DNA of 34,561 nt from an uncultured Pseudomonadota bacterium (GTDB taxonomy: Bacteria; UBA10199; JACPAL01; GCA-016699445): NCBI GenBank assembly GCA_964637745.1, contig CAZWYB010000002.1, forward strand, positions 1 to 34,561, given 5' to 3'. Positions 4,884 to 33,518 of the stretch are shown one piece after another; positions within the stretch are counted from its first letter, which is position 1, and each line of letters starts with the position of its first letter. The notes under the pieces were generated by a model. It was not told the DNA's origin. It did no database searches and saw nothing but the letters and a program-made list of their open reading frames with translations. Made by a program: the position numbers and the translations under genes.

Positions 4884-4887
4884 CTTC

Positions 4888-7120: not shown

Positions 7121-7169
7121 CACAAAAATTGGTAACAACATGGTCAAATAAAACACATGTTGTTACCAA
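7121..7169 (-). terminator. Rho-independent terminator after the TolB-like gene
   Basis: On the minus strand a perfect 14-bp stem (TTGGTAACAACATG / CATGTTGTTACCAA; 7156-7169 and 7129-7142) encloses a 13-nt loop and is followed by TTTTTGTGG. It sits 9 nt after the stop at 7178. Confidence 0.7.
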
Positions 7170-7177
7170 AAAGAGAG

Positions 7178-8506: not shown

Positions 8507-8530
8507 CTCAATTAAGCTCCTTTTTTATCT

Positions 8531-10948: not shown

Positions 10949-11074
10949 GAGAAACTCCCCCCGGCTTGTGTTGAATAGGAATTATCGGCGAACTCACCGA
11001 CACCGGTTTCGTTTCTAATGGACATTTAAACAAATCTTATCATGAAAATGAGGACTTGCGGGTCTTTATTCCGT

Positions 11075-13210: not shown

Positions 13211-13285
13211 GATGATTTCACCCTTTATCGTTGTATTTCAACTTATCGGCCGATCGGGGCACCCAAGTTGCCCCGCCTGCCACCC

Positions 13286-17171: not shown

Positions 17172-17297
17172 ATCAAGACCTCCTGAAATCAACCCCGGGT
17201 AGTTGTTTTCGGCATGTTACTGGCATGCAGTTTCGTCATCGGTAATTTAAGATGTCATCTTACCAGAACCGAAGGTGGATGAGTGATATTTTTTCAC

Positions 17298-19703
17298 TTA
17301 ATGCCTCGGATGGACTGCGCAGTTGTCATCGTTACCAGGGCATTCTTCCGAGCGCGTTCCAAGGCCGAGGCGTCCATGTCGGAATGTCGGCTCATGATCC
17401 CAACAACTGAACCAAAAACAGCTATGGGACATGACGCAAATTCTTGCGTCACAGTCGGAATATCCATAGGGAAGGGATACGTCGGGATACGAGACAGGAT
17501 CCCACGATTCGCAAACGAGTTGGCAATTCCTTCCCTCGGCTATCTGCCGGTCATCGATGGCGCCCGACCTCGTTTGATAGGTGGCGACGCCGTCGGTTTC
17601 GGAGGGATAGGAAATCGTGTGCCCGCAGGTGGAATACAGCCGTTTGCAATTCTGCGCGTTCGACCAATTCCAATGGTAACGCCTGGCATAAAGCGTGCCC
17701 CAGTTGTCCGTGTTGTCGCATTGATTGCCGCCGGGCCAACCGCCCCCGGCTCCGCCGTTATGGTCGGGGGTATATTGGCAGGCGGCGTTTTGCCACTCGG
17801 AGTTGTAATGCGAGACGGCCGCTGTCCATCCCCGATCCATCGGGTCGGCGCCTCCCTCCAACGACAAATGCGGAGGGAAAGGAAAACTTTTCAGCGACGG
17901 ATCCGACTGAAACAGACTTCCATCCGTATCATGTCCAACTATGGCATATTGCGTGCAATGGTGGGTCCTTCCAAGCCGGACCGGGCCGATCGGAGTGGTC
18001 GTGATCGAGGTCACCACATCACCGGCTCCACACTCCTCGGGAGGCCCATACCCTCCCCTCGTTCCAACCGGAGCAAAGGCCTTCACCTGAAGATCGCGGA
18101 CCCATGGGACAGTCACCGAGCTCTCATCGTGCCAGGATCCGTCATCCATGAGCTTGGAGACCGTACACGCGCGAGTGACGGAGGCATAGAAAGTGAGATC
18201 GACGGGCGTGTTGCAACTTTCCCACCAGTGATCCAAGGATGTCCCGGAGCACGACAACACGCCTCCCGGATCTCGCGCGCCGGGCGCGTAAATTTCGCCG
18301 CCGAGTCTTAAATTCGGTTGAGGGGCCTCGCAGTGGATACGGTATTGTTGCAACACGTTATCGGCGGTGTCCCCCATGGCCATAGCAACGATACTGACCG
18401 TCGCATCCTTTTGAAACGGACAACTTCCCGTGATGCTCGCCCGTCCGTCACTGGAGACGTCGTTCACCATGGTCGTCACGAGGCATCCCATGACCGCCAG
18501 GCGTTGAACAGTATGGGTCGCGTTCGCCTGCAACTCGATCTTGGGCTCGCGATCGCTCACCGTAACGCTAACGCCCGAGAACGACGGACGCTCCAGCGTG
18601 AATTCATGCGTCGTCGACCGCCATGTACCGTCCTCTCCTTGCGCCACCAGGGTATATTTCCCAGGCCACGCCAACTTGACGTAGAACGTCCCGCTCGCGG
18701 CCGACAGCTCCACGCGGCAGAAGGTGGCCGATCGATGCGCGTCGGGATGCCAATCGCGGCAGTTGCCGTCGGCTTCCACGCAGGCAGTCCCCGAATTATA
18801 AGGATGGTACGTGGCATAGACGGGCGCCCCTTCGACCAACGCATGCCCGTTCGGATCGGTCACGAGGCCTTCGTGCGTCGTACCGGTCACGGTCTCGCTG
18901 CAATCCGCCCTCGATGTGGGGAAATAGACGTATTTGGCCCGGAGGGTTCCTCCGCCTTGAATCTGGTAATTGACGTGTGCGAACCCGTAAAGATCGCGAA
19001 TGGCGTCGCTGCCGTCCAAAGAAACGCCGAAGGTCGTCGGCGTCGAAGACGCCTCGCGCACCCCGCAGGTGTGATCGGAGCGGCACACGTTGCCGCCCGT
19101 ACATTCGCTGTCGGCGTGGCAAGAGGTCGGCGTGGGTGTCGGCGTCGTCCCCGCCACACAGCTTCCACTGTGACAGACACGGCCGGACGCGCAATCGGCG
19201 TCGTCCACGCAGGTCGGCGTCGTCGCGCCGGGCGTGCTGTCCGAGGGGCGGATCTCCCCTCCTCCGCCTGCGGAGCACGTCCCCGCGCTGCAGGTCTGGC
19301 CGGCTCCGCAGTCGGTATCGGAGGAACAGGTTGAAGCCGCCCCGGGAACAATCTGGAAATTACGAGCGATCACAAAGGGCCCTTCCGTTCCGCGTCTCCA
19401 AATGAGATCGCCGGTGCCCGTCTGGGCGGGAAGCGTCAACGAAAGGCCGCGGTCGTTTTGATTGCAGTCGACAAAAAATTCCATCCGGCCTCGATCCAAA
19501 AAACAGCGGGAATCGGCGTCGAAATTGTCTTGAGGGCCGCATTGAATCGTCTGACCGGGTGTTCCCGTCGGAGGACACGAAGTCGCCGTTCCTTGAGGGG
19601 ATGTCGACGCCCCGCCGCTTTTTTTGGACGACGCGCAGGCGGCAAGACTGACGATGAATAAAAGAGCCAAAACGGCCCGGAATCTCGCAAGGTGGCACGC
19701 CAT
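17298..19703 (-). CDS. Cysteine-rich lipoprotein, paralog B (function unknown)
   Basis: ATG 19703 starts the ORF and the lipobox is LAAC. The N-terminal domain (CPPTGTPGQTIQC...FFVDC...GDLIWRRG..GPFVI) is clearly similar to that of 19824-22139. Three 4-Cys modules lie at 19065-19328. Confidence 0.85.
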   Translation of the reverse strand: MACHLARFRAVLALLFIVSLAACASSKKSGGASTSPQGTATSCPPTGTPGQTIQCGPQDNFDADSRCFLDRGRMEFFVDCNQNDRGLSLTLPAQTGTGDLIWRRGTEGPFVIARNFQIVPGAASTCSSDTDCGAGQTCSAGTCSAGGGGEIRPSDSTPGATTPTCVDDADCASGRVCHSGSCVAGTTPTPTPTSCHADSECTGGNVCRSDHTCGVREASSTPTTFGVSLDGSDAIRDLYGFAHVNYQIQGGGTLRAKYVYFPTSRADCSETVTGTTHEGLVTDPNGHALVEGAPVYATYHPYNSGTACVEADGNCRDWHPDAHRSATFCRVELSAASGTFYVKLAWPGKYTLVAQGEDGTWRSTTHEFTLERPSFSGVSVTVSDREPKIELQANATHTVQRLAVMGCLVTTMVNDVSSDGRASITGSCPFQKDATVSIVAMAMGDTADNVLQQYRIHCEAPQPNLRLGGEIYAPGARDPGGVLSCSGTSLDHWWESCNTPVDLTFYASVTRACTVSKLMDDGSWHDESSVTVPWVRDLQVKAFAPVGTRGGYGPPEECGAGDVVTSITTTPIGPVRLGRTHHCTQYAIVGHDTDGSLFQSDPSLKSFPFPPHLSLEGGADPMDRGWTAAVSHYNSEWQNAACQYTPDHNGGAGGGWPGGNQCDNTDNWGTLYARRYHWNWSNAQNCKRLYSTCGHTISYPSETDGVATYQTRSGAIDDRQIAEGRNCQLVCESWDPVSYPDVSLPYGYSDCDARICVMSHSCFWFSCWDHEPTFRHGRLGLGTRSEECPGNDDNCAVHPRH

Positions 19704-19823
19704 GAGTTTACCTCAGTGTACCACAGCCTGGAGCGGGGCTGTAGGAGTTTAGATTGTCAAAATTGGGGGCGTTTGAGTTATCGGCTGACAAGACCTGGCC
19801 GGTTGCGTCCTCTGTAAATCGCT

Positions 19824-22139
19824 TTATTGCCAGGCACATTGGGCGGGCGGCTCAAAGTTGGGATTCCGTTTCGTCTGTAAACCGTTACCCGATCCCGTCG
19901 CCTTGCCGTCAGGACCATCCTCGTAACAACTGCACTCCCACTGTTTATGTGGGATGGACACCTCTACCCTCGTTCCGTCGTAGTAGACGGCCCAGAACTG
20001 GCAGGAGAAATCCTGTTTCCAATCGCTCCAATATTTGTTTCGGATTCCATCGTCCGTAATATTGGCGGAAGGCACCGGGATATCGGTCGAAAGGATACCG
20101 CTCTGAGGTCCGTAATTCTTAGGGTCGGGCTTATCCCATTTCGAATAAACGATGATGTCAATGTCCGGCGTCTTTTCTCCCCCCAGGGCCAAACGATCAT
20201 AGGTCGCAATTTCACAATGGTACGCAAAATAACTGAGATGCTGTCCGCTCCAGGACCAAGCAATCGATGAGGACCCGTCGAAACAGGAATGTGTATCCTT
20301 CAGGTTGAGCGTCGGACTCAGGGGAGAGGGAGAAATGCTGAAAGAAGGATTATAAGGATGGCTCACGGGGTCGCTTTGATACGTCTTCCCGTCATAATCC
20401 TTGGCGACGGCGACCCAGCCCGTATGGCCGTAATCCCGATCCGCGACGAACTCCCCATTCCCGTTTTTCTTGGTCACTTCCTCCTTGAGGATCCAAGGAG
20501 CGGACTGCGGCTTGTAATTCGGAGTGAAGAGCGTTTTCTTGGCCATGCTCTTATTTGCGGTCGTGGTACGAACGGAAGAAGGATCCGTCGCTGCATAAAC
20601 GGATAACGAATCCACCCAGACAACTTCCTTGGAGGCAGCCGGTTTGACGGAGACGCCGTCCTTCTGAATGTCATAGGTACGGGAAACAGTCGGATGGAAA
20701 TTGATGGTTCCCGGATAATCACAATTATCCGGATCGTTCGCGGCTCCCGTCCCGGAACACGTTCCCCCTCCCTCGTTCAAGGTCACCGCCGGTTTGTGGA
20801 GGACCACCGAGAACGTATGGGACACGGCATTCTTGGGATCCAAACCGGAAGCAGCGATACCGATCGTCATGTTCGTCGAGAGCAAGCAGGTCGCAGAAAG
20901 CGTGCCGGAACCGTCTTTTGACAACGAGTTGAGCGTGTATTGAATTGAGGGGCAACCGGTCACCGCCGGAACGCTGGAGACGCCCGTATAGGTCGCCTGC
21001 AGGAGGACCTTCGGCTCGTTATAGGACAGGGAGACGGCGGCGTCGACGGTCGGGATATCCGGCGTCAACGTCAGCTCCGCGGTCTTCGTCGTTCCCGCCT
21101 CATCCGTCGCCACGATCACGAACTTTCCGTTTGCAACCAGGAGCCGCGAGGCGAAATCGCCTGCCGCCAGGGGCTTCCCGTTTGCGTCGACCGGATTCAT
21201 CAGACACGTCGGCGCCGCAGGCGCACCGGCTGCCGGCGGGGAAAATCCCTGATAGCAATCATTGGCGTTGACGCACGGCTTGCCCGTGGTCAGACCTTTC
21301 GACTCGGCCTCCTGAAAATTCGTGGACGGCTGCGCCGGCGGAGTGGGAAGAGGTCCAAAATCCCCTCCTCCGGATTTCGCCGGATTGACCGTGAGCCATG
21401 ACGCCGTTTTATCGTCGCCGCAGTTGGTATCCTTATCGCTCCGGTTCCAGGGGCCGACCAAGGCCACCGATTTCAAACCCTGTCCCCCTTCGACGTGAAA
21501 CGTAAAGGTGTAAAGGCCCAATCGGGTTTTGGTCTCTTCTTGGGCCTCGAGAGTCACTTTGAGTTCTTGAGGGGTTCCCGTCGTCGGCGAAGTCGTCCCG
21601 GTCGAACCGGACCCGGATGGAGAAGGCGTCCCGGAAGCCACACACGTTCCGGAGGTCTTGTCGCAAATCCTGCCGCTGGCGCAGTCGGAATCGCTCAAAC
21701 AATTCACCGTGCTCTCCGTGGGAGTCACGGGTTGTCCTCCGGAAGCGGCGGGAGCCGAAGCCGAAGCGGAGGCCGGAGCGATCGTGATCCCCTTTTGAAT
21801 GACGAAGGGCCCCGCCGACCCTTGGCGGAAGATCAAGTCCCCCTTGCCCGCCAGGGCCGGAAGCGTCACTTGAAGACCTTTATCGGTTTCCTGGCAATCG
21901 ACGAACAGCTCTCTCTGCCCCTGATCCAAGAAACACTGGCTGTCGCTCGTGAAGTTGTCGGGTTTCGCGCAGAGGATCTGTTCGCCCGGCGTCGCCGTCG
22001 TGGGACAGGCCGAGAGCGATGCCGTGCCGCCACCGACGGGCGAAGGCCCCTTGTTGGCGGAACCGCCGCCGCAGGAGGCGGCAAACACCAGCACACACGT
22101 CAGGACCAAGACTTTTTGAAACGGGCTATAAAATCTCAT
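19824..22139 (-). CDS. Cysteine-rich lipoprotein, paralog A (function unknown)
   Basis: ATG 22139 starts the ORF and the lipobox is AASC. The N-terminal domain is homologous to paralog B. One 4-Cys module lies at 21642-21701. The C-terminal motif is FSCQFWAVYYDGTRVEVSIPHKQWEC. Confidence 0.85.
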   Translation of the reverse strand: MRFYSPFQKVLVLTCVLVFAASCGGGSANKGPSPVGGGTASLSACPTTATPGEQILCAKPDNFTSDSQCFLDQGQRELFVDCQETDKGLQVTLPALAGKGDLIFRQGSAGPFVIQKGITIAPASASASAPAASGGQPVTPTESTVNCLSDSDCASGRICDKTSGTCVASGTPSPSGSGSTGTTSPTTGTPQELKVTLEAQEETKTRLGLYTFTFHVEGGQGLKSVALVGPWNRSDKDTNCGDDKTASWLTVNPAKSGGGDFGPLPTPPAQPSTNFQEAESKGLTTGKPCVNANDCYQGFSPPAAGAPAAPTCLMNPVDANGKPLAAGDFASRLLVANGKFVIVATDEAGTTKTAELTLTPDIPTVDAAVSLSYNEPKVLLQATYTGVSSVPAVTGCPSIQYTLNSLSKDGSGTLSATCLLSTNMTIGIAASGLDPKNAVSHTFSVVLHKPAVTLNEGGGTCSGTGAANDPDNCDYPGTINFHPTVSRTYDIQKDGVSVKPAASKEVVWVDSLSVYAATDPSSVRTTTANKSMAKKTLFTPNYKPQSAPWILKEEVTKKNGNGEFVADRDYGHTGWVAVAKDYDGKTYQSDPVSHPYNPSFSISPSPLSPTLNLKDTHSCFDGSSSIAWSWSGQHLSYFAYHCEIATYDRLALGGEKTPDIDIIVYSKWDKPDPKNYGPQSGILSTDIPVPSANITDDGIRNKYWSDWKQDFSCQFWAVYYDGTRVEVSIPHKQWECSCYEDGPDGKATGSGNGLQTKRNPNFEPPAQCAWQ

Positions 22140-22196
22140 GGGTTGCTAGAGTTATCGACAGGCCTAATCCCTCCGGTTGCTAAAGGGATTTTACCA

Positions 22197-23322
22197 TCAG
22201 TCCGGCAGGGTGTCATCCGCCTTGGCCGTCGGGCCCTTAAGCAGATAAATGCGGATGAATTCGTCCAAGTCGCCGTTCAAGACGCGGTCGGGGTCACCGA
22301 CTTCGTAACCGGTGCGGTGATCCTTGATGAGACGGTAAGGGGCCAAGACGTAGGAGCGGATCTGGGGGCCCCAGGCGATGTCACTCTTTCCAGCCTCGAT
22401 CTTTTCCTTTTCCTGGTTCTTTTTCTCCAACTCCCGCTCATACAGGCGGGCCTTGAGGATCTTCATGGCCGTGTCGCGGTTCCGGTGCTGGGAGCGCTCG
22501 TTCTGACAGGCGACGACGATGCCGGTGGGCAGGTGCGTGATCCGGACGGCGGAATCGGTCTTGTTGACCTTCTGGCCTCCGGCACCGGAGGACCGAAAGG
22601 TGTCGATGCGGAGATCGGTTTCCTTCACCTCGATTTCGATGTCGTCCTCCACGTCCGGAAGAACGAAAACGGACGCGAAGGATGTGTGCCTCCGTTTGTT
22701 GGCATCGAAGGGCGAGATGCGCACGAGGCGATGGACGCCGATCTCGGCCTTCAGATAACCGTAGGCATAAGGCCCCTCGACCATCATCGTCACGGAGCGG
22801 AAGCCCGCCTGGTCGCCCGGTGTAAAATCCAGGACCTCGTTCTTGTAGCCGTGTCGATCCGCCCACATGCGGAACATGCGGAGGAGCATCTCGGCCCAGT
22901 CGCAGGACTCAGTCCCGCCGGCGCCGGCGTTGATCGAAAGGATGGCGTTTTTGGCGTCGTTCTCTGCGGAGAGCATCTGGCGGAATTCCAGATCATCCAA
23001 ATCCTTTTCCAGCTGTTCGATCTTGCCGCGCGCCTCCGCCTCGATCTCCGGGTCCGGACCTTCCTGCAAAAGTTCGACGCAGGATCCGAGATCGGCGAGC
23101 CCCTTTTCGATTTTCTCGTCTTGGGCGACGGTCTGTTTGAGGGCGTTGAGTTCCCTGAGTGTCAAGCCGGCCGCACGCGGTTCGTTCCAAAATCCTTCGG
23201 CCTGCGATTGGTTTTCCATTTCCCGGAGCCGGTCCTTCTTTCGGGGGATGTCAAAGCCGCCTCCGAAGCGGTTCGGACTTGGTCTTCAACTCCTCTAATC
23301 TTTCTTTAATTTCTTTTGCCAT
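22197..23322 (-). CDS. prfB: Peptide chain release factor 2, requiring a programmed +1 ribosomal frameshift
   Basis: Frame 0 runs from ATG 23322 and encodes MAKEIKERLEELKTKSEPLRRRL before the in-frame TGA at 23251-23253. The +1 frame continues as DIPRKKDRLREMENQ... into the 340-aa track ORF, which carries the RF2 SPF and GGQ motifs. The total is about 374 aa. Confidence 0.92.
23250..23265 (-). promoter_or_regulatory. RF2 autoregulatory +1 frameshift site (CGG AGG CGG CTT TGA C)
   Basis: The canonical CTT TGA C slippery/stop context is present, with an internal Shine-Dalgarno-like GGAGG three nt upstream of CTT. Confidence 0.9.
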
Positions 23323-23386
23323 GGTTTACGACTTCGTCTCCAACCATTCCCGCGTCCACCCGTCTTCGACGGGTACCCGGACTTGG

Positions 23387-24928
23387 TCATCGCCTCAGCG
23401 TTACCAGACCTAGCGCCGCAACACAACACCAAGCGAAGACGTCTCCAAAATGCGTGTACAGCGAGATCGGGCCACCGACCGGCACGTCCGCCGTGATCGC
23501 CGCCTCCTGAAAGAGGGGCGCCTCGGCGATGACCTCGCCCGTGGGGCTGAAGAATCCGGTCCGGCCCGTGTTCGTCGCCCGGGCCATCGAGCGTCGGTTC
23601 TCGATCGCGCGGTACCGCGAAAAATCGAAGTGCTGGTAGATGGCGGACGAGCCCTCGTACCAGCCGTCGTTGGTGACGTTGATCAGGAAATCGGCGCCCT
23701 TTCGCGTGAACAGGCGTGAGATCTCGGAAAACAGATCTTCATAACAGATCGTAACGCCGAACTTCGTCCCCGCCGCCGTCATCACGTTGAATTCCTTTCC
23801 CGCCGTGAAGCTGCTCACGGAGGGAGCGACCTTCGAGAGAAAGAAGAAGACGCGCGCGAGAGGGACGTATTCGCCCATCGGCACCAGGTGAACCTTGTGA
23901 TAGTGGTCCGCGATGAAGCCGCCCGGCTCGATCAAAAAGGCGCTGTTGTGAAGGGCGAAATCACCCGGCTTCTCCGGCAAGGGCGGGGGCCAGTCCTCGG
24001 GAATCACGCCGTCATAGCTGACGGCGCCCATCAGGATCGGCTTCTTCACCTCCCCGATCTCCTCGATCTTTACGATGTCGGGTGGAATAACGGCCGGAAA
24101 GGCGGCCTCCGGCCAGACAATGAGATTGGGTGATGCCTCTTCGGCCCGATCGGTCAACTCCCGGTGTTTTTGGATGATCTCGGGCATCTTCTCGTCGATC
24201 CATTTCTCATCCTGAGGGATGTTTCCCTGAACCATCGAGACCTTGAGCGTCCGCAGACCGGCGACGACCGACCGCACCTGCGAAAGCCGAACCTTGCCGT
24301 AAACCACCGCTGCGAGGAGGGCGACGGTGAAAAGCGCCGCCAACCGCGTCGGCGGAGGCGTTTCGCGCCGGCCTTTGACCCAGATCCAAACCTCCCCTCC
24401 GAGGACGTTCGCCAGCAGGATCAAAAAGAGGAGACCGGAGACTCCCGTCACGTCCAACATCTGGAGGAGCTCCAGGTGCCCGCTCTGGCTGTAGGCAAGG
24501 TTCGCCCACGAAAAACCGCCGAAGGGAAAGTAGTTTCTTAGGAATTCAAAACCGATCCAAGAAAGCGTGAAGGTGATCCAAAGCGGAATCTTTTCCGAGG
24601 CCAAGCGGACCGCCGTCCCGCACACGGCCGCCGGAAAGAGGGAGACCAAGACGACCAAAATCATAAGTCCGCCCGCACTGTCCCACGCGGAGACTTCCCC
24701 GTAACGATGCAGGGCGATGAAGATCCAATAAAGCGAGAAACCGAAGTGCGCACAGCCGAACGCGAATCCCCGCAAGACTCCCTGCCTCGCCGTGGCGTTT
24801 CGAAGCGAGAGAAACAGAGGAATCAACGCCACCCAGGCGAAGTAACCCAGATCGGGCCATCGGTGTCCGGAGAAGGCGACCGGGAGGCTGAACGCCGAAA
24901 GAATTCCGGAGAGAAGGGCCGCCGTCAT
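23387..24928 (-). CDS. lnt: Apolipoprotein N-acyltransferase
   Basis: A multi-TM N-terminal half is followed by a CN-hydrolase domain (VWPEAAF, GVTICYE). ATG 24928 (MTAALLSG...) was chosen because it overlaps the ybeY stop by 1 nt (TGATG). The track ORF extends to 25003. Confidence 0.88.
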   Translation of the reverse strand: MTAALLSGILSAFSLPVAFSGHRWPDLGYFAWVALIPLFLSLRNATARQGVLRGFAFGCAHFGFSLYWIFIALHRYGEVSAWDSAGGLMILVVLVSLFPAAVCGTAVRLASEKIPLWITFTLSWIGFEFLRNYFPFGGFSWANLAYSQSGHLELLQMLDVTGVSGLLFLILLANVLGGEVWIWVKGRRETPPPTRLAALFTVALLAAVVYGKVRLSQVRSVVAGLRTLKVSMVQGNIPQDEKWIDEKMPEIIQKHRELTDRAEEASPNLIVWPEAAFPAVIPPDIVKIEEIGEVKKPILMGAVSYDGVIPEDWPPPLPEKPGDFALHNSAFLIEPGGFIADHYHKVHLVPMGEYVPLARVFFFLSKVAPSVSSFTAGKEFNVMTAAGTKFGVTICYEDLFSEISRLFTRKGADFLINVTNDGWYEGSSAIYQHFDFSRYRAIENRRSMARATNTGRTGFFSPTGEVIAEAPLFQEAAITADVPVGGPISLYTHFGDVFAWCCVAALGLVTLRR

Positions 24929-25374
24929 CAATCTGTCCTGGCCTTCCCGGCCTTCCTGGCGGCTTTCTCCGCCAAAGCCAAAAGCTCGTTGGTCTTCCGC
25001 CACATCCGGTCCCGGTCCTTCTTCTTTTTATCCCGGTATCCCAGGAGGTGGAGCAGGCCGTGAATGGCCAGGATGATCATTTCCGTCCGGGTCGCATGGC
25101 CCTGTTCCCTTGCCTGACGTCTCGCGGTGTCCGCGGAGATGAGAACATCCCCCAAAACTCCCCTTTCCTTCATTTCGAACGCGATCACATCCGTTGCATA
25201 ATCGTGGCGAAGATATTTTGCGTTATAGCGCCGGATCGCCGCGTCCGAAACGAAAAGAAAATTGACCTCCTGATCGTCGACACCCAAAGACGCGATGATC
25301 TTTCGCAAGGAGGCGCGCAGGCCCTTGACGGGGATTCTCACGGACGGATTCTGATTTTGAATCGTAATCGTCAT
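24928..25374 (-). CDS. ybeY: rRNA maturation endoribonuclease YbeY
   Basis: 148 aa with the zinc-binding motif HGLLHLLGY. Its start overlaps the upstream kinase stop (ATGA). Confidence 0.9.
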   Translation of the reverse strand: MTITIQNQNPSVRIPVKGLRASLRKIIASLGVDDQEVNFLFVSDAAIRRYNAKYLRHDYATDVIAFEMKERGVLGDVLISADTARRQAREQGHATRTEMIILAIHGLLHLLGYRDKKKKDRDRMWRKTNELLALAEKAARKAGKARTD

Positions 25375-26921
25375 GAAGAAGAGACTTTCGGCCCTTTTGA
25401 AGGGGACGCTGGGAGATCCGCACGGAAAGTCGCTGTGAAAAGCGCCCCCTTCCCCGGTTCGCTTTTCGCGGTGATCGTCCCCCCATGGTTCTGAAGAATC
25501 AGCCTGCAGACGGCGAGCCCCACGCCCGAGCCTCCCGTCTTCCAGACGCCCCGTTGCGTCGCCTGGCCGAACATTTCAAAGATCTTCTGATGATCCTCGG
25601 GGTTGATCCCGACTCCGTCGTCCTCGACCTCGATTGTGATTTGCTCTTTTGAAGACGCAAGCGCGACGTGAATCTTTCCTTTTTGATCGGTGAACTTGAC
25701 GGCGTTGCTCAGCAGATTGATCATCACTTGCTTGATCTTATCCGCATCGCAGACCGCGTAAAGAGGGCGATCGGGAAGTTCCAGCGTGAATTGAATTTGC
25801 TTCCCCGCAATATCGGGCTTCATCACCTCGCAGGCCTCCCGGACGACTTCCGCCATATCGGCCCTTTCGAAGACCATCTGCATCTTTCCCGCCTCCAGGC
25901 GCGAGTAATCGAGGACATTGTTGATGAGGCGGGCCAGCCGGTCGATGTTCCTCTTCGTAATCGTAAGCGTCTCTCTCTGGCCCTCGTTGATGGGCCCGTC
26001 TATGCCGTCCAAGAGGATGTCGATTCCGGACTTCATGGAAGACAGCGGGGTCCTGAGTTCATGGGACACCATGGAGACGAAGGACGACTTCATCTGGTTT
26101 ACGCGCTGCAGCTCTTCGTTCGCACGCCTCACTTGCTCCTCGGTGTGCTTCCGTTCCGTGATGTCGACGACGGAACTGATGACGAAGGCCCCTTCATCGG
26201 TTTCCATGGGATTCAAACCGATCTCGACCGGAAATTCGCTGCCGTCCTTCCTCCGGCCGAAGAGATCGCGTCCGGCGCCCATCGCGCGGGTCTGGGGATC
26301 TTGGAAAAAATCACGACGGTATTCGGGATGCCTCGCCCGGAACCTTTGAGGGACCATCATGTCGATGGAGCGTCCGACAAGCTCCTCCTTTTCATATCCG
26401 AACATCTTCTCGATCTGCGAATTGGCAAGGATGATCTTCCCCTCGTCGTCCACCATGATCATGCCGTTGGGAGCCGCTTCGAACGTCATTCGGAAACGCA
26501 TCTCGCTGCGCTTCAGTTGCGCCTCGTTCTTGATCGCCTTCAATTGGGCGGGGTTTGGAAAAGAAAGGGCGTCGGGAAGAAACGGCCAGATCGCGAAGGC
26601 CGTCGCGATGGAAACGAGCGCCGTCAACGCCTTAACGACCCCTTCGAGCCGGTAGGCTCCGTTCCACGTGGTCCAGACGGCCATAATGTGCGTGGTCCCA
26701 CAGGCAAAGATGAACGTGGCGAAGAGAACGAAGATCCAGCGGAAGGGAACGTCCTTCCGTTTCGTGATGAAGTAAAACAACGTGAGAGGGATCGAGTAAT
26801 AGGCGAGCGTGATGACGATGTCCGACGCCACATGCAGCCAAAGGATTTCCGGCTTCCAAAAATAGCAATGCCCGTGGGGCATGAAGTCGGCCGTAAAGAG
26901 ATTTTTGAGGAAATCGATCAT
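25371..26921 (-). CDS. Sensor histidine kinase: ethylene-binding-domain-like 3-TM sensor, PAS, HisKA, HATPase
   Basis: The kinase boxes are present: H-box HELRTPLSS, N-box NLLSNAVKFT, G1 DDGVGI and G2 GGSGVGLA. Residues 30-115 align without gaps across helices 1-2 to Arabidopsis ETR1 residues 21-106 as remembered. The ATGA overlap with the upstream gene stop supports the start. Confidence 0.88.
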   Translation of the reverse strand: MIDFLKNLFTADFMPHGHCYFWKPEILWLHVASDIVITLAYYSIPLTLFYFITKRKDVPFRWIFVLFATFIFACGTTHIMAVWTTWNGAYRLEGVVKALTALVSIATAFAIWPFLPDALSFPNPAQLKAIKNEAQLKRSEMRFRMTFEAAPNGMIMVDDEGKIILANSQIEKMFGYEKEELVGRSIDMMVPQRFRARHPEYRRDFFQDPQTRAMGAGRDLFGRRKDGSEFPVEIGLNPMETDEGAFVISSVVDITERKHTEEQVRRANEELQRVNQMKSSFVSMVSHELRTPLSSMKSGIDILLDGIDGPINEGQRETLTITKRNIDRLARLINNVLDYSRLEAGKMQMVFERADMAEVVREACEVMKPDIAGKQIQFTLELPDRPLYAVCDADKIKQVMINLLSNAVKFTDQKGKIHVALASSKEQITIEVEDDGVGINPEDHQKIFEMFGQATQRGVWKTGGSGVGLAVCRLILQNHGGTITAKSEPGKGALFTATFRADLPASPSKGPKVSSS

Positions 26922-29047
26922 AGACGGCGGACGTTCTTGGGAGGAATCTTCGAAATCTCCTTGGGAACCGCTTCCTTGAGGGAATCCTCGCGAAGCGGTT
27001 TTGAGTGCGAATATTTATCGGCTTCGGCCGTGTCTTCCTGAATCGGCGAGACCGCTTTATCGCGGGCGGCCTTCTCCGCCTCGTCGGGAGGGTATTCGAT
27101 CCTCTGGTGATAGATCCCCATCAGAACCCGAAGAAAGCTTTTTGCGATCGTGTGAAGGTCCTTGAGCGTCAGCTCGCACTCGTCCAGCTGGCCGTCGATG
27201 AAGTTCTTGTTGATCATGTTGCGGACGACCTCCTCCAAACGGGCGGGAGAACGGTCCTTCAGGGCCCGCGTCGCCGCCTCCACGGTGTCCGCCAAAAGGA
27301 TGATGCCGGCCTCGCGCGTCTGCGGCTTGGGGCCGGGATAGCGGTAGTCGCGCTCCTCGACCACGTGCATCTCCGGATCCTCCTTCTCCTTCGCCTTGTT
27401 GTAGAAGTAGGTGATCAGCTTGGTGCCCTGATGCTGGGGGATGATGTCCGTGATCCGCTGGGGGAGCTTGGCCTCCCGCGCCATCTCCAGGCCGTCTTTG
27501 ACATGCGAAGAGATGATCAGGGCGCTCATGGAAGGCGCGAGGCTCGCGTGCTTGTCTTCCGCCCCGGCGGCCGATTGATTTTCGATGAAATACGTCGCCT
27601 TCTTCATCTTGCCGATGTCGTGAAAATAGGACGCGACGCGGGCGAAGAGGGAATCGGCGCCGATCGCCTCGGAGGCCGCCTCCGCCAACGTCCCGACCAT
27701 GTGGCTGTGATGATAGGTCCCCGGCGCGCGGACGATCATCTCCCGGAGCAACGGATGATTCAGGCTTCCGTATTCCAGGAGCTTCACCGGCGTCAGGTAG
27801 TTGAAGAGGGATTCGAAGACGGGCATGATGATCATGACGAGCACGGCACTCAACACGCCGCCCGCGAAGGCCAGGATGGCGCGAAGGAAGAGCTCTTCGG
27901 CGTTGGTTGCGCCCGTGAGGCTCGTGACGTTCATCATATCGAGTCCCAGACTGACGACGGCGTTGAGCGCGCCCAATTCAAGCCCCACGCGAAGAAGCTG
28001 CCCGCGGGTGCGCACGCCCGACATGAAAGCGATGCTCAAGACGCAGCCCACGAAATAATACAAGGTATAGTTGAGACTTCCCTGCGCGAGGATGCCCGCC
28101 ATGGCCGCGCTCACGGGGGCGAAAAGCATGGCCATCGGAAGCGGCAGCACGAGCCTGACCATCATCGTTCCGAAGGCGATCGGAATGAGCCCGTAAAAGG
28201 AGTTCATGGGGATGTCGACCGGCAACAGGCCGCGAATGGCCCCGAACGTGAAGAGCGAGATTCTTTCGACAAGGATCAAGGTGACGAGCAAGACGCCCAA
28301 GAAAACCAGATCCCGCGGACGAAGCTCCAACTTCGGAAAGGCCCGGTTGAGGACGAAAAAGAAGGTGACAAGAAAAATGAAGATGAAGAAAAAGGTCCCG
28401 ACGAACCGGGTGCGGCTGAAGGCCCTGTTCTTTTCCTTCCGGATCCCCTCGATCACCTTGAGGTGCCAAGGCTCGAAATGATCCCCGCTTCGGATGATGG
28501 ACTCTCCGGCTTGCACCTTGATCACGACGGGTTTGACGCTTTCCACGGCGTCTTCCTGAAGCTTTTTCGTCTCCGACTCGTTATAGATGAGCGTCGGCCT
28601 GATCTCGTTTCGTTGATTCGACTTCGCCCAACGCGCCTGCGCCTCGGCAACGGACAAGATAGTGCTGAAATCCTTCAAAATCAGCTTCGGCGCGTCGGGA
28701 TGCCTCAAGAGGTGGATCTGAAGGCCCCGGTCCTTCCAGGGGTCCAATTCGCTCCGATTTCCAATGATCTTTTCGCGGCCGAAGCCGGCATCGTCCCAAT
28801 CATAGACGGGCAGGACCGATTTCATGGCCTCCTGCTTCAAGTGCTCGGTCGTCTCTTCGTCGAAGATTTCGTAGTCCTTGTCGGCACGGATGTCCTGGTG
28901 GGCGATGCGCCCGATTTCAATGCCCGTGGGCAGCTGTCCTCCTGAAAAATTGATGAGGAGGGCCACCACCAAAGACAGGATCAAGAGACCGACGCCCTGG
29001 AACAACAACGCATGCTGTCCGACCAGTTCTTCAATGTTTTTTTTCAT
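26918..29047 (-). CDS. 7TM-receptor HD/HDIG phosphohydrolase (YqfF/PgpH family)
   Basis: A large N-terminal extracytoplasmic region is followed by 7 TM helices and an HD domain (HHSHMVG, YFHDIGKMK). It occupies the conserved position between phoH and ybeY. Confidence 0.85.
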   Translation of the reverse strand: MKKNIEELVGQHALLFQGVGLLILSLVVALLINFSGGQLPTGIEIGRIAHQDIRADKDYEIFDEETTEHLKQEAMKSVLPVYDWDDAGFGREKIIGNRSELDPWKDRGLQIHLLRHPDAPKLILKDFSTILSVAEAQARWAKSNQRNEIRPTLIYNESETKKLQEDAVESVKPVVIKVQAGESIIRSGDHFEPWHLKVIEGIRKEKNRAFSRTRFVGTFFFIFIFLVTFFFVLNRAFPKLELRPRDLVFLGVLLVTLILVERISLFTFGAIRGLLPVDIPMNSFYGLIPIAFGTMMVRLVLPLPMAMLFAPVSAAMAGILAQGSLNYTLYYFVGCVLSIAFMSGVRTRGQLLRVGLELGALNAVVSLGLDMMNVTSLTGATNAEELFLRAILAFAGGVLSAVLVMIIMPVFESLFNYLTPVKLLEYGSLNHPLLREMIVRAPGTYHHSHMVGTLAEAASEAIGADSLFARVASYFHDIGKMKKATYFIENQSAAGAEDKHASLAPSMSALIISSHVKDGLEMAREAKLPQRITDIIPQHQGTKLITYFYNKAKEKEDPEMHVVEERDYRYPGPKPQTREAGIILLADTVEAATRALKDRSPARLEEVVRNMINKNFIDGQLDECELTLKDLHTIAKSFLRVLMGIYHQRIEYPPDEAEKAARDKAVSPIQEDTAEADKYSHSKPLREDSLKEAVPKEISKIPPKNVRRL

Positions 29048-29999
29048 TTCTGGCTACCTCATAGGCTTTCACGATCTCGGAAACGAGCGGATGACGGACG
29101 ACGTCTTCTTGGGTGAAGTATTGAAAGCCGATCCCGGGAATGTTCTGAAGGATCCTCTCGGCCTCGATCAATCCCGAGAGTTTTCCCGCCGGTAGGTCCA
29201 CTTGGGTGACGTCGCCGGTGACGACGGCCTTGGAATCGAAACCGAGCCGCGTCAAAAACATCTTCATCTGTTCGCTGGTGCAGTTCTGCGCCTCGTCCAG
29301 GATGACGAAGGATCCGTTGAGCGTCCTCCCGCGCATGAAGGCGAGCGGGGCGATCTCGATGACCCCCGTCTCGGTGAGTTTGACGATCTTCTCATAGTCC
29401 ATCATGTCGTAGAGGGCGTCGTAGAGGGGCCTCAGATACGGGCTCACCTTGTCGTACATGTCGCCGGGCAGGAATCCCAACTTCTCCCCCGCTTCGACGG
29501 CGGGTCGAGCGAGAATAATGCGGCTGACTTGTTTCTTCAGAAGCGCGATCACCGCCATGGCCACAGCCAGATAAGTCTTGCCGGTTCCCGCGGGTCCGAC
29601 ACCGAAAACCAAGTCGTGCTTCCGGATCGCGTCCATGTAAGCGCGTTGGTGGAGTCCTTTGGGGATCACCACTTTGTTGCGGCTCGGGATGAAGATCGTG
29701 TCTTCGAGGAGGTCCTGAAGGTTCGCGGCCTGGTTGGACGAGAAGACTCGGATCGCCTGCTCGACGTCCTGTCCGTACACCGGCATCCCTTTTTTCAGCA
29801 TGCTGTAAAGCTCGAGCAGGATTTTCTCCACGAGCTTGGCCTGCACGTCCGTGCCCTTGATGCTGACGTCGGTGCCGCGGACGTCGATCTGGACCCCCAG
29901 CCTCTTCTCCAAGGATCGGAGGTGCTCGTCTTGAACCCCGAAGAGATTTCGGGCGAGTTCATTGTTGTCGAACCGAAGCTTTTTTGCCGTTTCGCCCAT
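29031..29999 (-). CDS. phoH: PhoH-like ATPase (YbeZ)
   Basis: Walker A GPAGTGKTYLA, ILDEAQN, and a KH-like N-terminal region. It overlaps the downstream gene start by 17 nt. Confidence 0.9.
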   Translation of the reverse strand: MGETAKKLRFDNNELARNLFGVQDEHLRSLEKRLGVQIDVRGTDVSIKGTDVQAKLVEKILLELYSMLKKGMPVYGQDVEQAIRVFSSNQAANLQDLLEDTIFIPSRNKVVIPKGLHQRAYMDAIRKHDLVFGVGPAGTGKTYLAVAMAVIALLKKQVSRIILARPAVEAGEKLGFLPGDMYDKVSPYLRPLYDALYDMMDYEKIVKLTETGVIEIAPLAFMRGRTLNGSFVILDEAQNCTSEQMKMFLTRLGFDSKAVVTGDVTQVDLPAGKLSGLIEAERILQNIPGIGFQYFTQEDVVRHPLVSEIVKAYEVARNEKKH

Positions 30000-30008
30000 G
30001 CCGTTGCC

Positions 30009-30422
30009 CTAACGAGGGGCCGCTCCTCCCGCTCCTTTCTTGCCGGCCGCCGGCGGAGGGGTCTCGGCGGACACGTGCACCTTGAACTCCCTCCGGCGTC
30101 CGGAATTGTCGTAGTCGATCAGGAAAATTTCCTGCCAGGGTTCGATCAGCATCTTCATTTTTTCAAATGGCATCGCGAGCGACTTAGGCAGGAGGGTTCG
30201 GATGAGTCCCGTTGCGATATGAGGTTCCAGGGCCTTCTTCACTTCGTCCAGACGTTCCGCGGAATCGAAAACCGCCAGCCCCGCCCCGGGATTCGAAATC
30301 ACGATCGTTGCGGTACCGTTCTCCGTATTCGCCTCCTTAACGACCCGGCGGACCTCATGAATGATCTTCAAGATGTCCAAACCCTTGGTCGTGTCGACGA
30401 AGAAGTTCTTCAATAAGATCAT
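30009..30422 (-). CDS. Small conserved protein, possibly a divergent YjbQ/UPF0047-like fold
   Basis: The 137-aa ORF starts at ATG 30422 and ends 9 nt before phoH. The C-terminal PWQEIFLIDYDNSGRRREFKVHV resembles the YjbQ GTWQ...R.R motif, but the conserved His residues are not evident. Confidence 0.6.
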   Translation of the reverse strand: MILLKNFFVDTTKGLDILKIIHEVRRVVKEANTENGTATIVISNPGAGLAVFDSAERLDEVKKALEPHIATGLIRTLLPKSLAMPFEKMKMLIEPWQEIFLIDYDNSGRRREFKVHVSAETPPPAAGKKGAGGAAPR

Positions 30423-30433
30423 ATTAAAGATAC

Positions 30434-30470
30434 CACAAAAACAAAACCCCGCACCCGATCGGGTTTGGGG
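30434..30470 (-). terminator. Terminator-like hairpin plus U-tract immediately upstream of the YjbQ-like start
   Basis: The minus strand reads CCCCAAACCCGATCGGGTGCGGGG followed by TTTTGTTTTTGTG. That gives 4+4 GC-rich bp around a 2x2 internal loop, with a GAUC loop. The role is unclear (attenuator or end of an unannotated transcript). Confidence 0.4.
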
Positions 30471-30625
30471 ACGCGAAAAGGCTACTGCTTTCAGGGAGTT
30501 ATGTCAAAAAAATATTTTGACCTCAGAGAAATGAAATCGATCTCAGAAACCAGGCATCGGCGTTTGCTATAGCAAGAGACGTGCTCAAATAACTAAATAA
30601 ATCTTAGGCCTTACAGACATAGTGT

Positions 30626-30654
30626 TTGACTTTGTCCCGTCGGATGGAGAAAAT
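30626..30654 (+). promoter_or_regulatory. Candidate sigma-70-type promoter for the riboswitch leader
   Basis: TTGACT (30626-30631), a 17-nt spacer, then GAAAAT (30649-30654). This would put the transcription start about 30-40 nt before the aptamer. It is a pattern match only. Confidence 0.3.
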
Positions 30655-30694
30655 CTATCCAACTCGAAGTACAAAGGAGAACACCGAGTTCTTG

Positions 30695-30765
30695 AAAAAG
30701 GCAAACCCGTCGTGAGGCGGGGACGCAAAGCTTCTGGTCTCATTCGCCGACGTTAAAGAGGCGGA
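30695..30765 (+). promoter_or_regulatory. GEMM-I (c-di-GMP-I class) riboswitch aptamer
   Basis: The RNA reads AGGCAAA-CCCGUC-GUGA-GGCGGG-GACGCAAAGCU. This matches the remembered V. cholerae Vc2 core GGGCAAA-CCAUUC-GAAA-GAGUGG-GACGCAAAGCC position for position, with a 6-bp stem capped by a GNRA tetraloop. A second hairpin follows (GCUUCU...AGAGGC). The outer boundaries are approximate. Confidence 0.8.
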
Positions 30766-30817
30766 TGAGGCAGCAGGGCTGCCAAGGGAAGAAACGACTG
30801 ATCGTTTTCTATGGCAG

Positions 30818-30858
30818 CCCATCTCTCGGCAAAAGGCCGGAGGTGGGTTTTTTATTTT
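30818..30858 (+). terminator. Intrinsic terminator forming the riboswitch expression platform
   Basis: CCCATCTC-t-CGGC aaaag GCCG-GAGGTGGG gives 12 bp with one bulge and one G-U pair, followed by TTTTTTATTTT. The T-tract ends 18 nt before ATG 30876. Confidence 0.8.
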
Positions 30859-30875
30859 GGACAAACGGAGGCCTT

Positions 30876-33518
30876 ATGAACATCTCGTTGAAGACGGTGC
30901 TCTTACCGATCGTCATCTTCATCAACTTTCTTGGGGCCTCGGTGTCCTTTGCGGCGAGTCTCGGAACCGGAAGGGTGACTGATGTGACGGCCGGTGATAA
31001 CGGGTGTAAGACGGTCAGCGGCGATTCAACGCAGTTCTACAACGTCCAGCAATCAAAAACCTATAAGGTCACCTTGAGTAACGTAACGGAGTGCTCAGGC
31101 GGCACGATTGGCATCCTGGTCAAGAATACGGACAACGGCAACCAATGCCTGACGGCATCATCGGGATCCTCCTCCGGCACCTATACTTTTACGGTCACGA
31201 TGCCGCCGGACGCCTGCAATACCTATCCGATCCAGTATTGCGTCACCGCGTGCAAAGCCTCCACGGGTTTCTTAGCCACCCGGTCCGATGGAGGGGGTTT
31301 TGGCGCCCATCTGAGGGCCGGTAATTTTGATGCGGATTGCAATTATCTTTCACAGGATACGGATTGTACGGGCCATCAAGACGGCGATCCCTGTGACGAC
31401 GGTAACGCCTGTACAACGGATGATCAGTATCAAAACGGAATCTGCGTCGGAAGCCCTCTAAATTGCGATGATTCCAATGCTTGCACCACGGATAGATGCG
31501 ATCAAACAGCGGGTTGTATCCATACCGACGTCGTGTGCTTGACCGATGACAACGATGCCTGCACGACAAACGGCTATTGCGACAAACAAACAGGGTGCGT
31601 CAACCCGACCCCCATCAGTTGCGATGATCAGGACGTTTGCACCCTTGATAGCTGCAATCCCGCCACCGGATGCCTCAATGTGAAGGATACCTGCGACGAC
31701 CATATTGAATGCACGGCGGATAGCTGTGTCCAAGGACAAGGGTGTCTACACGTTCCTGAGAACAGTTCCTGCGATGACAAGAATCCTTGCACTAAGGATA
31801 TTTGCGACCCCCAAGTCGGCTGCCGACATGAGCCAGTTGAGGTGGGAACGGTTTGTCGCGAGGCGGCCGGGGATTGCGACGTCGCCGAGATGTGCGACGG
31901 TACGGGCGCGCCCTGTCCTCAAGATTCTTTCAAGCCGGTGGATGCGGTTTGCCGTCCTGCAGCCGGGGAGTGCGACAAAGCCGAGACATGCACGGGGTCT
32001 TCGCCCCTCTGTCCCGCGGACGCGGTAAAGCCCGCGGAGACGTCCTGCGGCGATGACGGCAATGTCTGTACTCGTGACATCTGCGACGGCAGCAGCGTCA
32101 GTTGCACGCACCCAGCCGGCAATGGAGGGACCGTCTGCCGTCAGGCCTCTGATCTTTGCGATCAGAATGCGCTCTGTACGGGGACAAGTTCCGTTTGTCC
32201 TTCCAATCCTTTTAAACCCGCCAGCGTCGTTTGCCGAGGGGCTCACGGCGTTTGTGATACGCCCGAAAGTTGCACGGGGTCCTCGGCGGCCTGTCCGGCG
32301 GATGCGTTTCTACCGAATACGGTGACGTGTCGTCCCTCGGCCGGTGTGTGCGACACGCCCGAATCCTGCACGGGCAACGGCCCCGATTGTCCGAACGATG
32401 TCTTTAAACCTTCGACGACGGTCTGTCGTCCCGCGGCGGGGGAATGCGACGTGCCGGACAACTGCTCCGGGCTGGGAGCCGCCTGCACCGATGACGCTAA
32501 GAAGGCTCCCAACACAGCTTGCACCGATGACGGCATTTTCTGCACGGCTGATCTCTGCGATGGGACGCACGACGCCTGCCAACATCCGACGGCGCCGAAG
32601 GACGGCGTAGTTTGCGACGACAGCAACGCATGTACTCAGACGGATCTTTGCCAAAGTGGCTCCTGCGTCGGATCAAACCGCATCCCGGGCGTTGTCTCGG
32701 GAATGAAATACTATGATGCCAACGCCAACGGCCAATGGGATTCAGGGGAGGTCGGGATCGGATCTTGGAGTATCTCTTATAGCGGCCCTGTCTCGGCTAC
32801 AGAGCTCACCAATGCCGGCGGTCTCTTCTCAAATTCCTTGGCAAACGGGGCGTACACCTTTAAGGAAATGACTTCTTCGGGATGGCAACAGACCGGAAAC
32901 CTGATCAATCAGACTTCCGTCAGTCAGACCGGAACCCCCCTCGGCAACGCCTCCTGCCAACTCAAAGGAGATAAGTCCTATTCGTGTCAGGTGGCCGAGT
33001 GCAACACGGTGGCGGGGGTCGATTTCGGCAACCTCTGTCTCGGCTCCGGAGGCGGTCTGACGCTGGGCTTCTGGTCGAACAAGAACGGACAGGCTCTTTT
33101 TTCAAATAGCGATCTGGCGGCGATGGTCGGTTTAAATCTCCGCAATGCGAACGGCAGCGCATTTGATCCAACAAGTTACACCGCGTTTAGAAACTGGATT
33201 CTGAGCGCTACGGCAACGAATATGGCCAACATGCTGTCGGCCCAATTGGCGGCGATGAAATTGAACGTCCGCCATAATTTCGTCTCGGGGAACGCCCTCA
33301 TCTACGCACCCGGCGCCAACAGCGCGAACGGCAACGGGTACGCGACGGTCAATGCCGTGATGGCCGAGGCGGACGCCTCCCTCGCGGCGAACGGGAATAC
33401 GGTCAAGTCGGACGCAACACGGTCCTACCAGGAGGCATTGAAAAATGCCCTGGACAACGCGAACAACAATAGGAATTTCGTTCAGGCGGGCCCTAACTCC
33501 TGCGGCCCACATCTTTGA
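30876..33518 (+). CDS. Secreted multi-repeat cysteine-rich protein (CTDC-like and disintegrin-like repeats, SdrD-B/Cna-B-like domain, unknown C-terminal domain)
   Basis: ATG 30876 has GGAGG 5 nt upstream and opens a classical signal peptide (MNISLKTVLLPIVIFINFLGASVSFAAS). The track ORF start at 30765 would read through the terminator. Confidence 0.85.
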   Translation: MNISLKTVLLPIVIFINFLGASVSFAASLGTGRVTDVTAGDNGCKTVSGDSTQFYNVQQSKTYKVTLSNVTECSGGTIGILVKNTDNGNQCLTASSGSSSGTYTFTVTMPPDACNTYPIQYCVTACKASTGFLATRSDGGGFGAHLRAGNFDADCNYLSQDTDCTGHQDGDPCDDGNACTTDDQYQNGICVGSPLNCDDSNACTTDRCDQTAGCIHTDVVCLTDDNDACTTNGYCDKQTGCVNPTPISCDDQDVCTLDSCNPATGCLNVKDTCDDHIECTADSCVQGQGCLHVPENSSCDDKNPCTKDICDPQVGCRHEPVEVGTVCREAAGDCDVAEMCDGTGAPCPQDSFKPVDAVCRPAAGECDKAETCTGSSPLCPADAVKPAETSCGDDGNVCTRDICDGSSVSCTHPAGNGGTVCRQASDLCDQNALCTGTSSVCPSNPFKPASVVCRGAHGVCDTPESCTGSSAACPADAFLPNTVTCRPSAGVCDTPESCTGNGPDCPNDVFKPSTTVCRPAAGECDVPDNCSGLGAACTDDAKKAPNTACTDDGIFCTADLCDGTHDACQHPTAPKDGVVCDDSNACTQTDLCQSGSCVGSNRIPGVVSGMKYYDANANGQWDSGEVGIGSWSISYSGPVSATELTNAGGLFSNSLANGAYTFKEMTSSGWQQTGNLINQTSVSQTGTPLGNASCQLKGDKSYSCQVAECNTVAGVDFGNLCLGSGGGLTLGFWSNKNGQALFSNSDLAAMVGLNLRNANGSAFDPTSYTAFRNWILSATATNMANMLSAQLAAMKLNVRHNFVSGNALIYAPGANSANGNGYATVNAVMAEADASLAANGNTVKSDATRSYQEALKNALDNANNNRNFVQAGPNSCGPHL
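31392..31844 (+). repeat. Six tandem ~25-aa repeats CDDxNxCTxDxCxxxxGC (Dictyostelium CTDC / Myxococcus Cys-rich-repeat-like)
   Basis: Read from the translation (aa 210-360 of the track ORF). Three more copies are interspersed downstream, up to 32672. Confidence 0.8.
31845..32495 (+). repeat. Seven tandem ~30-aa repeats CRxxxGxCDxxExCxGxSxxCPxDxxxP (ADAM/disintegrin-like)
   Basis: Read from the translation, for example VCRPAAGECDKAETCTGSSPLCPADAVKP and TCRPSAGVCDTPESCTGNGPDCPNDVFKP. Confidence 0.8.

Follow-up and report, generated by a model that had tools for sequence, protein, structure and literature searches.

A sensor histidine kinase that joins an ethylene-binding domain of the ETR1 type to a PAS domain of the FixL/DosP haem type was analyzed in the present study. 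Its gene lies on the reverse strand, at 25371..26921, of a 34,561-nucleotide stretch of DNA from an uncultured Pseudomonadota bacterium (positions 1 to 34,561 of contig CAZWYB010000002.1, assembly GCA_964637745.1), and this whole stretch is referred to herein as the window. Judging from its sequence, we consider it likely that the protein is a homodimeric inner-membrane sensor of the bacterial ethylene-receptor type, with a probable second input through the haem-type PAS domain.

The ethylene-binding domain and the kinase core

The N-terminal domain was matched by the Pfam model ETR1_N (PF25487, "Ethylene receptor 1-like, N-terminal domain") over residues 26-120, with E=1.5e-40 and 137.8 bits against a gathering cut-off of 27, covering model positions 2-96 of 97. 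This score tops those obtained in the same kind of scan for AzoEtr1 of Azospirillum brasilense (132 bits) and for the N-terminus of Arabidopsis ETR1 (AtETR1; 116.5 bits), and the identification as ETR1_N is confirmed, far beyond chance. The original prediction, which was made from the letters of the window, had already called this protein a histidine kinase with an ETR1-type ethylene-binding domain. This assignment stands. The ETR1_N match is accompanied by HisKA and HATPase_c domains with all boxes present, and the peptide quoted for 26547-26921, which corresponds to residues 1-125, reads exactly as given in the translation of the open reading frame (ORF). The ORF starts with ATG and encodes 516 amino acids (aa), and the protein is a complete class-I (HisKA) histidine kinase with an intact core. 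The ATP-binding boxes were located at residues 402-410 (N), 434 (G1, DDGVGI), 448 (F, FEMFGQ) and 463 (G2, GGSGVGLA). An exact-sequence database look-up of the kinase returned no record. The features of the gene are as follows.

25371..26921 (-): whole gene, ETR1_N - PAS - HisKA - HATPase_c, without a receiver domain (ORF list, Pfam, AlphaFold2)
26847..26921 (-): residues 1-25, predicted periplasmic N-terminal segment, with an amphipathic helix at 2-10 followed by P-H16-G-H-C19-Y-F-W
26865-26876 (-): residues 16-19, His-Gly-x-Cys motif (homologue conservation)
26562..26846 (-): residues 26-120, ETR1_N ethylene-binding domain (Pfam PF25487, hydropathy, AlphaFold2 helices)
26688..26702 (-): C74-G-T-T-H78 of helix 2, equivalents of the ETR1 Cu(I) ligands C65/H69 (alignments)
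26475..26561 (-): residues 121-149, helical linker from the third transmembrane helix to the PAS domain (model helix 124-149; comparison with the split relative described below)
26136..26498 (-): residues 142-262, PAS domain of the FixL/DosP (haem-PAS) type (phmmer search of the PDB, ungapped residue map)
26328-26330 (-): H198, aligned to the proximal His200 of Bradyrhizobium japonicum FixL (BjFixL; ungapped residue map)
26268-26270 (-): R218, aligned to the distal Arg220 of BjFixL (ungapped residue map)
25887..26093 (-): residues 277-345, HisKA dimerisation and phosphoacceptor domain (Pfam HisKA, E=3e-18)
26061-26063 (-): phosphorylatable H287 in the H-box SHELRTPL (motif reading)
25419..25748 (-): residues 392-501, HATPase_c catalytic domain (Pfam, E=3.6e-30; HK853-like fold)

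The residues of the binding domain were compared in two MAFFT alignments. One contained 156 sequences, namely the window domain, AtETR1 and the 154 nearest bacterial homologues. The other, A1, contained five sequences including AzoEtr1, for which the record of plasmid p1 of A. brasilense Sp7 was the source. For AtETR1 a working sequence and not a database record was used; its numbering matches published allele and mutant positions, and Pfam scores it as ETR1_N. In these alignments D34, Y41, I44, P45, I71, C74 and H78 of the window fall on D25, Y32, I35, P36, I62, C65 and H69 of AtETR1 at a constant offset of 9, and K97 falls on K91 at an offset of 6 because the loop between helices 2 and 3 is shorter by three residues. 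K91 is the helix-3 lysine of ETR1 that has been implicated in receptor output. The offset of 9 and the equivalences of D34, Y41, I71, C74 and H78 had been proposed before, and they are borne out; in particular, the correspondence of C74 and H78, for which alignment to ETR1 had been named as the check, holds in both alignments. Moreover, these residues and K97 are kept in 151-154 of the 154 nearest homologues, with C74, G75 and H78 of helix 2 present in all of them and K97 in 153. The seven AtETR1 residues are those that Wang et al. reportedly found in 2006 to be needed for ethylene binding. Published papers confirm that seven residues of ETR1 are essential, giving by name only D25, C65 and H69, and the equivalent positions of AzoEtr1 are reported as D35, C75, H79 and K98 (PMC11819568).

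The hydropathy of the N-terminus peaks at about residues 31-52, 58-82 and 94-115, and the AlphaFold2 helices at 24-54, 61-86 and 90-119 form the three transmembrane helices. A basic loop (TKRKDVPFR) lies at 53-61 and, following the positive-inside rule, the N-terminus is predicted to be outside, with loop 53-61 and the C-terminus in the cytoplasm. The AlphaFold2 monomer had a mean predicted local distance difference test score (pLDDT) of 81.8, with residues 13-21 below 50. When the full model was submitted to Foldseek, PAS-kinase and kinase-core structures were matched, the PAS-DHp-CA fold resembling YF1/HK853, and the membrane domain was without any match.

Upstream of the Pfam boundary, and outside the ETR1_N model, the protein reads P-H16-G-H-C19-Y-F-W, and this His-Gly-x-Cys (HGxC) motif is predicted by the topology to be periplasmic. 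H16 and C19 are present in all 154 nearest homologues, as strict as C74 and H78, and G17 is present in 152. AzoEtr1 has the motif as well, and so do members carried on plasmids of Acaryochloris, Pseudanabaena, Rhizobium and Blastomonas, all retrieved without using the motif, and among the sequences compared it was absent from the divergent Deinococcus member and from plant ETR1. It may represent a copper-acquisition site, a second metal site or a disulfide site. The accessible text of one study of cyanobacterial receptors notes their single Cys as a possible disulfide equivalent and holds no mention of the invariant His (PMC6682694).

The PAS domain

When residues 123-276 were searched against the PDB with phmmer, the haem-PAS domains of FixL and DosP/EcDOS accounted for 13 of the 14 top matches, with FixL haem domains at E=2e-18 (8js5), 1e-17 (1dp6) and up to 1e-15, and DosP/EcDOS at 3e-16 to 4e-15. 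The fourteenth was 10jx, an unannotated multi-sensor kinase entry, and the next cofactor class was represented by MmoS, which binds flavin adenine dinucleotide, at E=3e-7. The window PAS aligns with the BjFixL haem domain without a gap over 139 residues at 27% identity. In this map H198 lies on the proximal His200 and R218, 20 residues further on, lies on the distal Arg220, with conservative replacements in the hydrophobic pocket; the counterpart of the distal Arg in EcDOS is R97. H198 opens the F-alpha helix of the AlphaFold2 model (198-207), and within the PAS domain confidence is lowest in the FG loop, as expected because the prediction is of the apo form. H198 was conserved in at least 90% of alignment A2.

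FixL and DosP were placed in one PAS cluster (cluster 3) by Xing et al. 2023, according to whom haem binding is determined primarily by the F-alpha His (PMC10468136). Because the window PAS carries the His on which this published criterion is based, it is predicted to be a haem binder, with H198 as the probable ligand of haem b. The His(+20)Arg motif is present in at least 8 of the 23 other ETR1_N-bearing proteins among the best full-length matches, and in only 6 of the 150 nearest ETR1_N representatives. In the literature, no description was found of an ethylene-binding domain joined to a haem-PAS.

A split relative

The best match to the cytoplasmic part of the kinase is P0090 of Deltaproteobacteria bacterium GWA2_45_12, with 62% identity over 72% of the query, and in that organism the two modules are encoded separately.

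L081 9417-12397 (OGP09078.1): split locus with an ETR1_N gene, the kinase P0090 and two receiver genes

The stand-alone ETR1_N protein of this locus has 193 aa with a coiled-coil tail of about 60 aa. Of all known proteins it is the one nearest to the window domain (67% identity over 135 aa), and it keeps HGHCYFW and all ligands. The start codon of P0090 is located 2 base pairs (bp) past the stop of the ETR1_N gene. P0090 itself has no ETR1_N; it carries two membrane helices of its own with a short outside loop, a long coiled linker, in which Pfam called no HAMP domain, and the FixL-like PAS His/Arg. Two single-domain receiver genes, at L081 11622-12397, adjoin it downstream in convergent orientation. 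This arrangement was identical in four independent assemblies, and it differs from the window in comprising two genes, in its context on the ruvAB side and in its guanine-cytosine (GC) content of 0.45.

The window kinase thus corresponds to approximately the first 135 residues of the stand-alone ETR1_N protein followed, from a junction within the helical linker onwards, by residues ~184-551 of P0090. The occurrence of a fused and a split form provides independent evidence that the ETR1_N module and the FixL-like kinase work together, and an ETR1_N module presumably can act in trans to its kinase.

Distribution in bacteria and comparison with known receptors

The original prediction regarded such domains as documented in cyanobacteria, predicted in scattered other bacteria and largely untested. 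Neither the restricted distribution nor the lack of testing outside cyanobacteria holds. A phmmer search of 1.84 billion representative proteins with residues 1-125 returned 8,672 cluster representatives at E<=1e-3, of which 6,491 were at E<=1e-10 and 1,830 at E<=1e-30, and the nearest were 54-66% identical. Among the 98 nearest representatives Pfam found ETR1_N in 98, a kinase ATPase in 73, PAS in about 47, a receiver in 10 and GAF in 4, and the standard layout in bacteria is therefore ETR1_N-(PAS)-kinase. When plasmids were searched with tblastn, the domain was detected in Azospirillum, Rhizobium, Novosphingobium, Blastomonas, Rhodovastum, Eleftheria, Deinococcus and several cyanobacteria. 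No orthologue was found in a scan of GTDB species-representative genomes, in which the best full-length matches were 26-40% identical; these matches were picked partly through the peptide HGHCYFWK and are biased towards that motif.

Proteins of this kind, with diverse partner domains, were already known to be encoded by many proteobacteria and cyanobacteria (PMC7700396). Binding of 14C-ethylene has been reported for SynEtr1(1-130) (PMC6682694) and, in 2025, for AzoEtr1(1-130) from an alphaproteobacterium, in which D35A and C75A abolish function (PMC11819568); for Cys and Asp mutants of both receptors, function or binding is lost (PMC11819568; PMC6682694). The kinase belongs to this known, widespread and experimentally anchored family. 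Because a Pfam model, thousands of members and a validated proteobacterial receptor of the same layout exist, the bare domain assignment adds little.

The closest known system is AzoEtr1 (A. brasilense Sp7, OH82_RS30505; PLoS Genet 2025, PMC11819568), another non-cyanobacterial receptor, which has the same ETR1_N-PAS-HisKA-HATPase_c order in 525 aa, compared with 516 aa; the identity is 50% within the binding domain and 31% across the whole protein. The HGxC motif, the D/C/H/K positions and the three transmembrane helices are shared. Nevertheless, a shared FixL-type PAS was ruled out, as the PAS of AzoEtr1 is of the PAS_4 type without the His/Arg pair, and the AzoEtr1 paper makes no mention of haem in the receptor (PMC11819568). 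In addition, the receiver gene of AzoEtr1 overlaps the stop codon of its kinase, whereas the window kinase lies in a phoH-ybeY operon without a nearby regulator, and AzoEtr1 has been tested experimentally whereas the window kinase is known from sequence.

SynEtr1 (slr1212, Synechocystis PCC 6803) and GeiEtr1/2 resemble the kinase in their bacterial-type domain, single N-terminal Cys and phosphotransfer output. SynEtr1 is also a precedent for a second input, light, in the same protein (PMC6682694), although its second sensor is a cyanobacteriochrome GAF/PAS module and that of the window kinase is a FixL-type PAS. The cyanobacterial domain from Acaryochloris is 49% identical to that of the kinase. 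Arabidopsis ETR1 and ERS1 have a homologous three-helix domain (37% identity to the ETR1 sequence used) and share the seven residues, K91 and the kinase core. In contrast to the kinase, with its PAS and HGxC, the plant receptors have a GAF domain after the sensor, N-terminal C4/C6, a receiver in the case of ETR1, and signalling through CTR1/EIN2. With PAS in place of GAF and a single Cys within HGxC, the kinase is of the bacterial and not the plant type. The proximal His, the +20 Arg and the pocket are kept from FixL (B. japonicum, Sinorhizobium meliloti) and DosP/EcDOS, and the DHp-CA part resembles FixL/YF1; the kinase differs from FixL in its distinct N-terminus, in having no fixJ neighbour and in its changed propionate-binding residues.

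Genomic context

The gene order in the window is yjbQ - phoH - pgpH-like - kinase - ybeY - lnt - prfB. At both ends the kinase gene shares 4 bp (ATGA) with its neighbour: its start codon with the stop codon of the pgpH-like gene upstream, and its stop codon with the start codon of ybeY downstream. The two neighbours are listed below.

26918..29047 (-): 7TM-HD (PgpH-like) gene, upstream neighbour (Pfam; synteny)
24928..25374 (-): ybeY endoribonuclease gene, downstream neighbour (Pfam; synteny)

The related contigs L086 and L088 have the same order without the kinase, and in a third, L087, ybeY directly follows the PgpH-like gene; the PgpH-like proteins of all three are 63-67% identical to that of the window. 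This marks the kinase as a lineage-specific insertion into a conserved housekeeping operon, with which it is probably co-transcribed. A promoter and terminator scan of 22000-31000 found no more sites than in shuffled sequence and no sign of a promoter of its own. The GC content is 0.563 for the gene and 0.565 for the window; this equality rules out recent horizontal acquisition as judged by composition, and the insertion is therefore not recent.

The original prediction was correct in stating that no response regulator is encoded in the window. Domain scans of the 19 other large ORFs found no receiver, and tblastn of four receiver proteins against the 34.5-kb window gave only noise (E>2).

Several observations were made on other genes of the window. 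In the ORF list, ybeY and lnt share 76 bp (24928-25003), and the GTG given as the start of lnt, at 25003, probably lies too far upstream. In prfB, a programmed +1 frameshift site of the canonical kind, CTTTGAC with GGAGG before it, lies at ~23220-23300 (-) upstream of ORF 22197-23219; this 340-aa ORF as listed therefore comprises release factor 2 only from the frameshift onwards. The syntenic relative L088 lacks a block of about 19 kb (3577-22139) that in the window lies between prfB and an AMP-binding gene. The block contains six paralogous ORFs of 700-855 aa (pairwise identity 22-36%) and a 442-aa ORF, all without a Pfam match, together with an AAA_14/DUF4143 ATPase gene at 3577-4752; the six paralogues and the 442-aa ORF surround a gene at 13286-14728 that strongly resembles HTTM / vitamin-K-dependent gamma-carboxylases. 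Finally, a Cys-rich ORF of 917 aa at 30765-33518 (+) combines Dictyostelium-type CTDC and disintegrin-like repeats, an unusual eukaryote-like set for a bacterial contig.

Discussion

Herein, we propose the following course of signalling for the window kinase. Cu(I) would be held by C74 and H78 of helix 2, with D34 and K97, of helices 1 and 3 respectively, positioning it, and ethylene, which is membrane-permeant, would bind at this site. The signal would pass from the third transmembrane helix through the continuous helical linker (121-149) to the cytoplasmic PAS domain, and from there through a long signalling helix to DHp, where it would alter the autophosphorylation of H287 that the C-terminal ATPase domain carries out. 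From H287 the phosphoryl group would be transferred to a response regulator encoded elsewhere in the genome. If haem b on H198 is real, the status of O2 (or CO/NO) would be integrated with ethylene in one polypeptide. We infer the sign of the response and the target regulon only provisionally; as precedents for the sign, ethylene turns the output of plant receptors off, and O2 turns the FixL kinase off.

Several results weigh against an ethylene receptor with a haem-PAS. The haem propionate contacts of BjFixL, R206, H214 and I215, are replaced by D204, R212 and A213 in the kinase. The F-alpha His is found in about 60% of the FixL/DosP PAS cluster, and about 40% of the cluster is without haem ligation (PMC10468136), so that haem is probable and not certain. 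The kinase was rejected as a FixL orthologue, since the NCBIfam model NF041777 (sens_FixL_Rhizob) scored 145.7 bits against a cut-off of 850 and the window has no receiver gene. A PDB sequence search with residues 1-140 returned no match at E<=10, and no solved ETR1_N structure with it. By the two-component operon test, no response regulator is adjacent, the neighbours being pgpH-like and ybeY. The lineage appears to be uncultured and of groundwater type, and a role for ethylene there would be conjectural.

One alternative is that the domain is a real, copper-loaded ETR1_N whose physiological ligand is not ethylene but could be CO, another alkene or alkyne, or the state of copper or redox itself. 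Only metagenomes, one of them from groundwater, have so far yielded the host lineage, which is not obviously plant-associated; the Cu(I) of ETR1 binds other olefins and CO weakly; and the invariant periplasmic HGxC, absent from plant receptors, suggests extra metal chemistry. However, every ethylene-binding residue of ETR1 is kept, the two bacterial members that have been tested, both with HGxC (AzoEtr1 was checked), bind ethylene, and ethylene is made microbially in anoxic soils and sediments; we judge a different ligand unlikely. The fit of the cytoplasmic part to FixL raises a further question, namely whether the protein is essentially a FixL-like haem oxygen sensor in which the ETR1_N helices serve mainly as a membrane anchor and dimerisation module. 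This part does align end to end with FixL-type kinases, the sens_FixL_Rhizob model covering residues 133-507, and with FixL haem-PAS structures, and the kinase of the closest relative has an anchor of its own while its ETR1_N is a separate protein. A mere anchor, on the other hand, would not keep D34, Y41, I44, P45, I71, C74, H78 and K97 at the level observed, and in the split relative the ETR1_N gene, with all ligands intact, stands immediately before the kinase gene, which argues for a sensing partnership; we regard a purely anchoring role as quite improbable. That the likeness to ETR1 arose by chance among hydrophobic helices, or that the ORF is not a real gene, has a negligible probability given the match to a curated model, the thousands of homologues starting at the same Met, the intact ORF with translationally coupled boundaries, the complete kinase core and a GC content in line with that of the window.

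Returning to the preferred reading, an ethylene-receptor-type kinase with a probable haem-PAS, what is added to a known family is modest: the FixL-type PAS, the split homologue and the insertion into the operon. The fused and split pair offers genetic evidence for ETR1_N signalling in trans and supplies candidate receiver partners. Because the PDB holds no ETR1_N structure, small bacterial members of the family are reasonable structure targets. In a 2025 preprint, plant ETR1/ERS1 are reported to be Ca2+-permeable (bioRxiv 10.1101/2025.10.20.683334); if this property were general to the three-helix domain, bacterial ETR1_N proteins, stand-alone ones included, might conduct ions.

A bolder and rather doubtful extension is that the kinase integrates two gases through two metals, with the membrane Cu(I) reading ethylene, the FixL-type haem reading O2 (CO/NO), both acting on one kinase, and HGxC serving as a copper-acquisition or second metal site specific to bacterial receptors. 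The pairing of the two modules recurs in uncultured bacteria, and the split locus would be its two-gene version. The combination of ETR1_N and a FixL-type PAS in a compact protein of 516 aa with a single PAS would, if real, be a tractable system for studying the integration of two gas signals. A rise in ethylene along with a loss of O2 typifies waterlogged or anoxic sediment and, if the extension is true, the sensor would be a bacterial analogue of flooding perception in plants.

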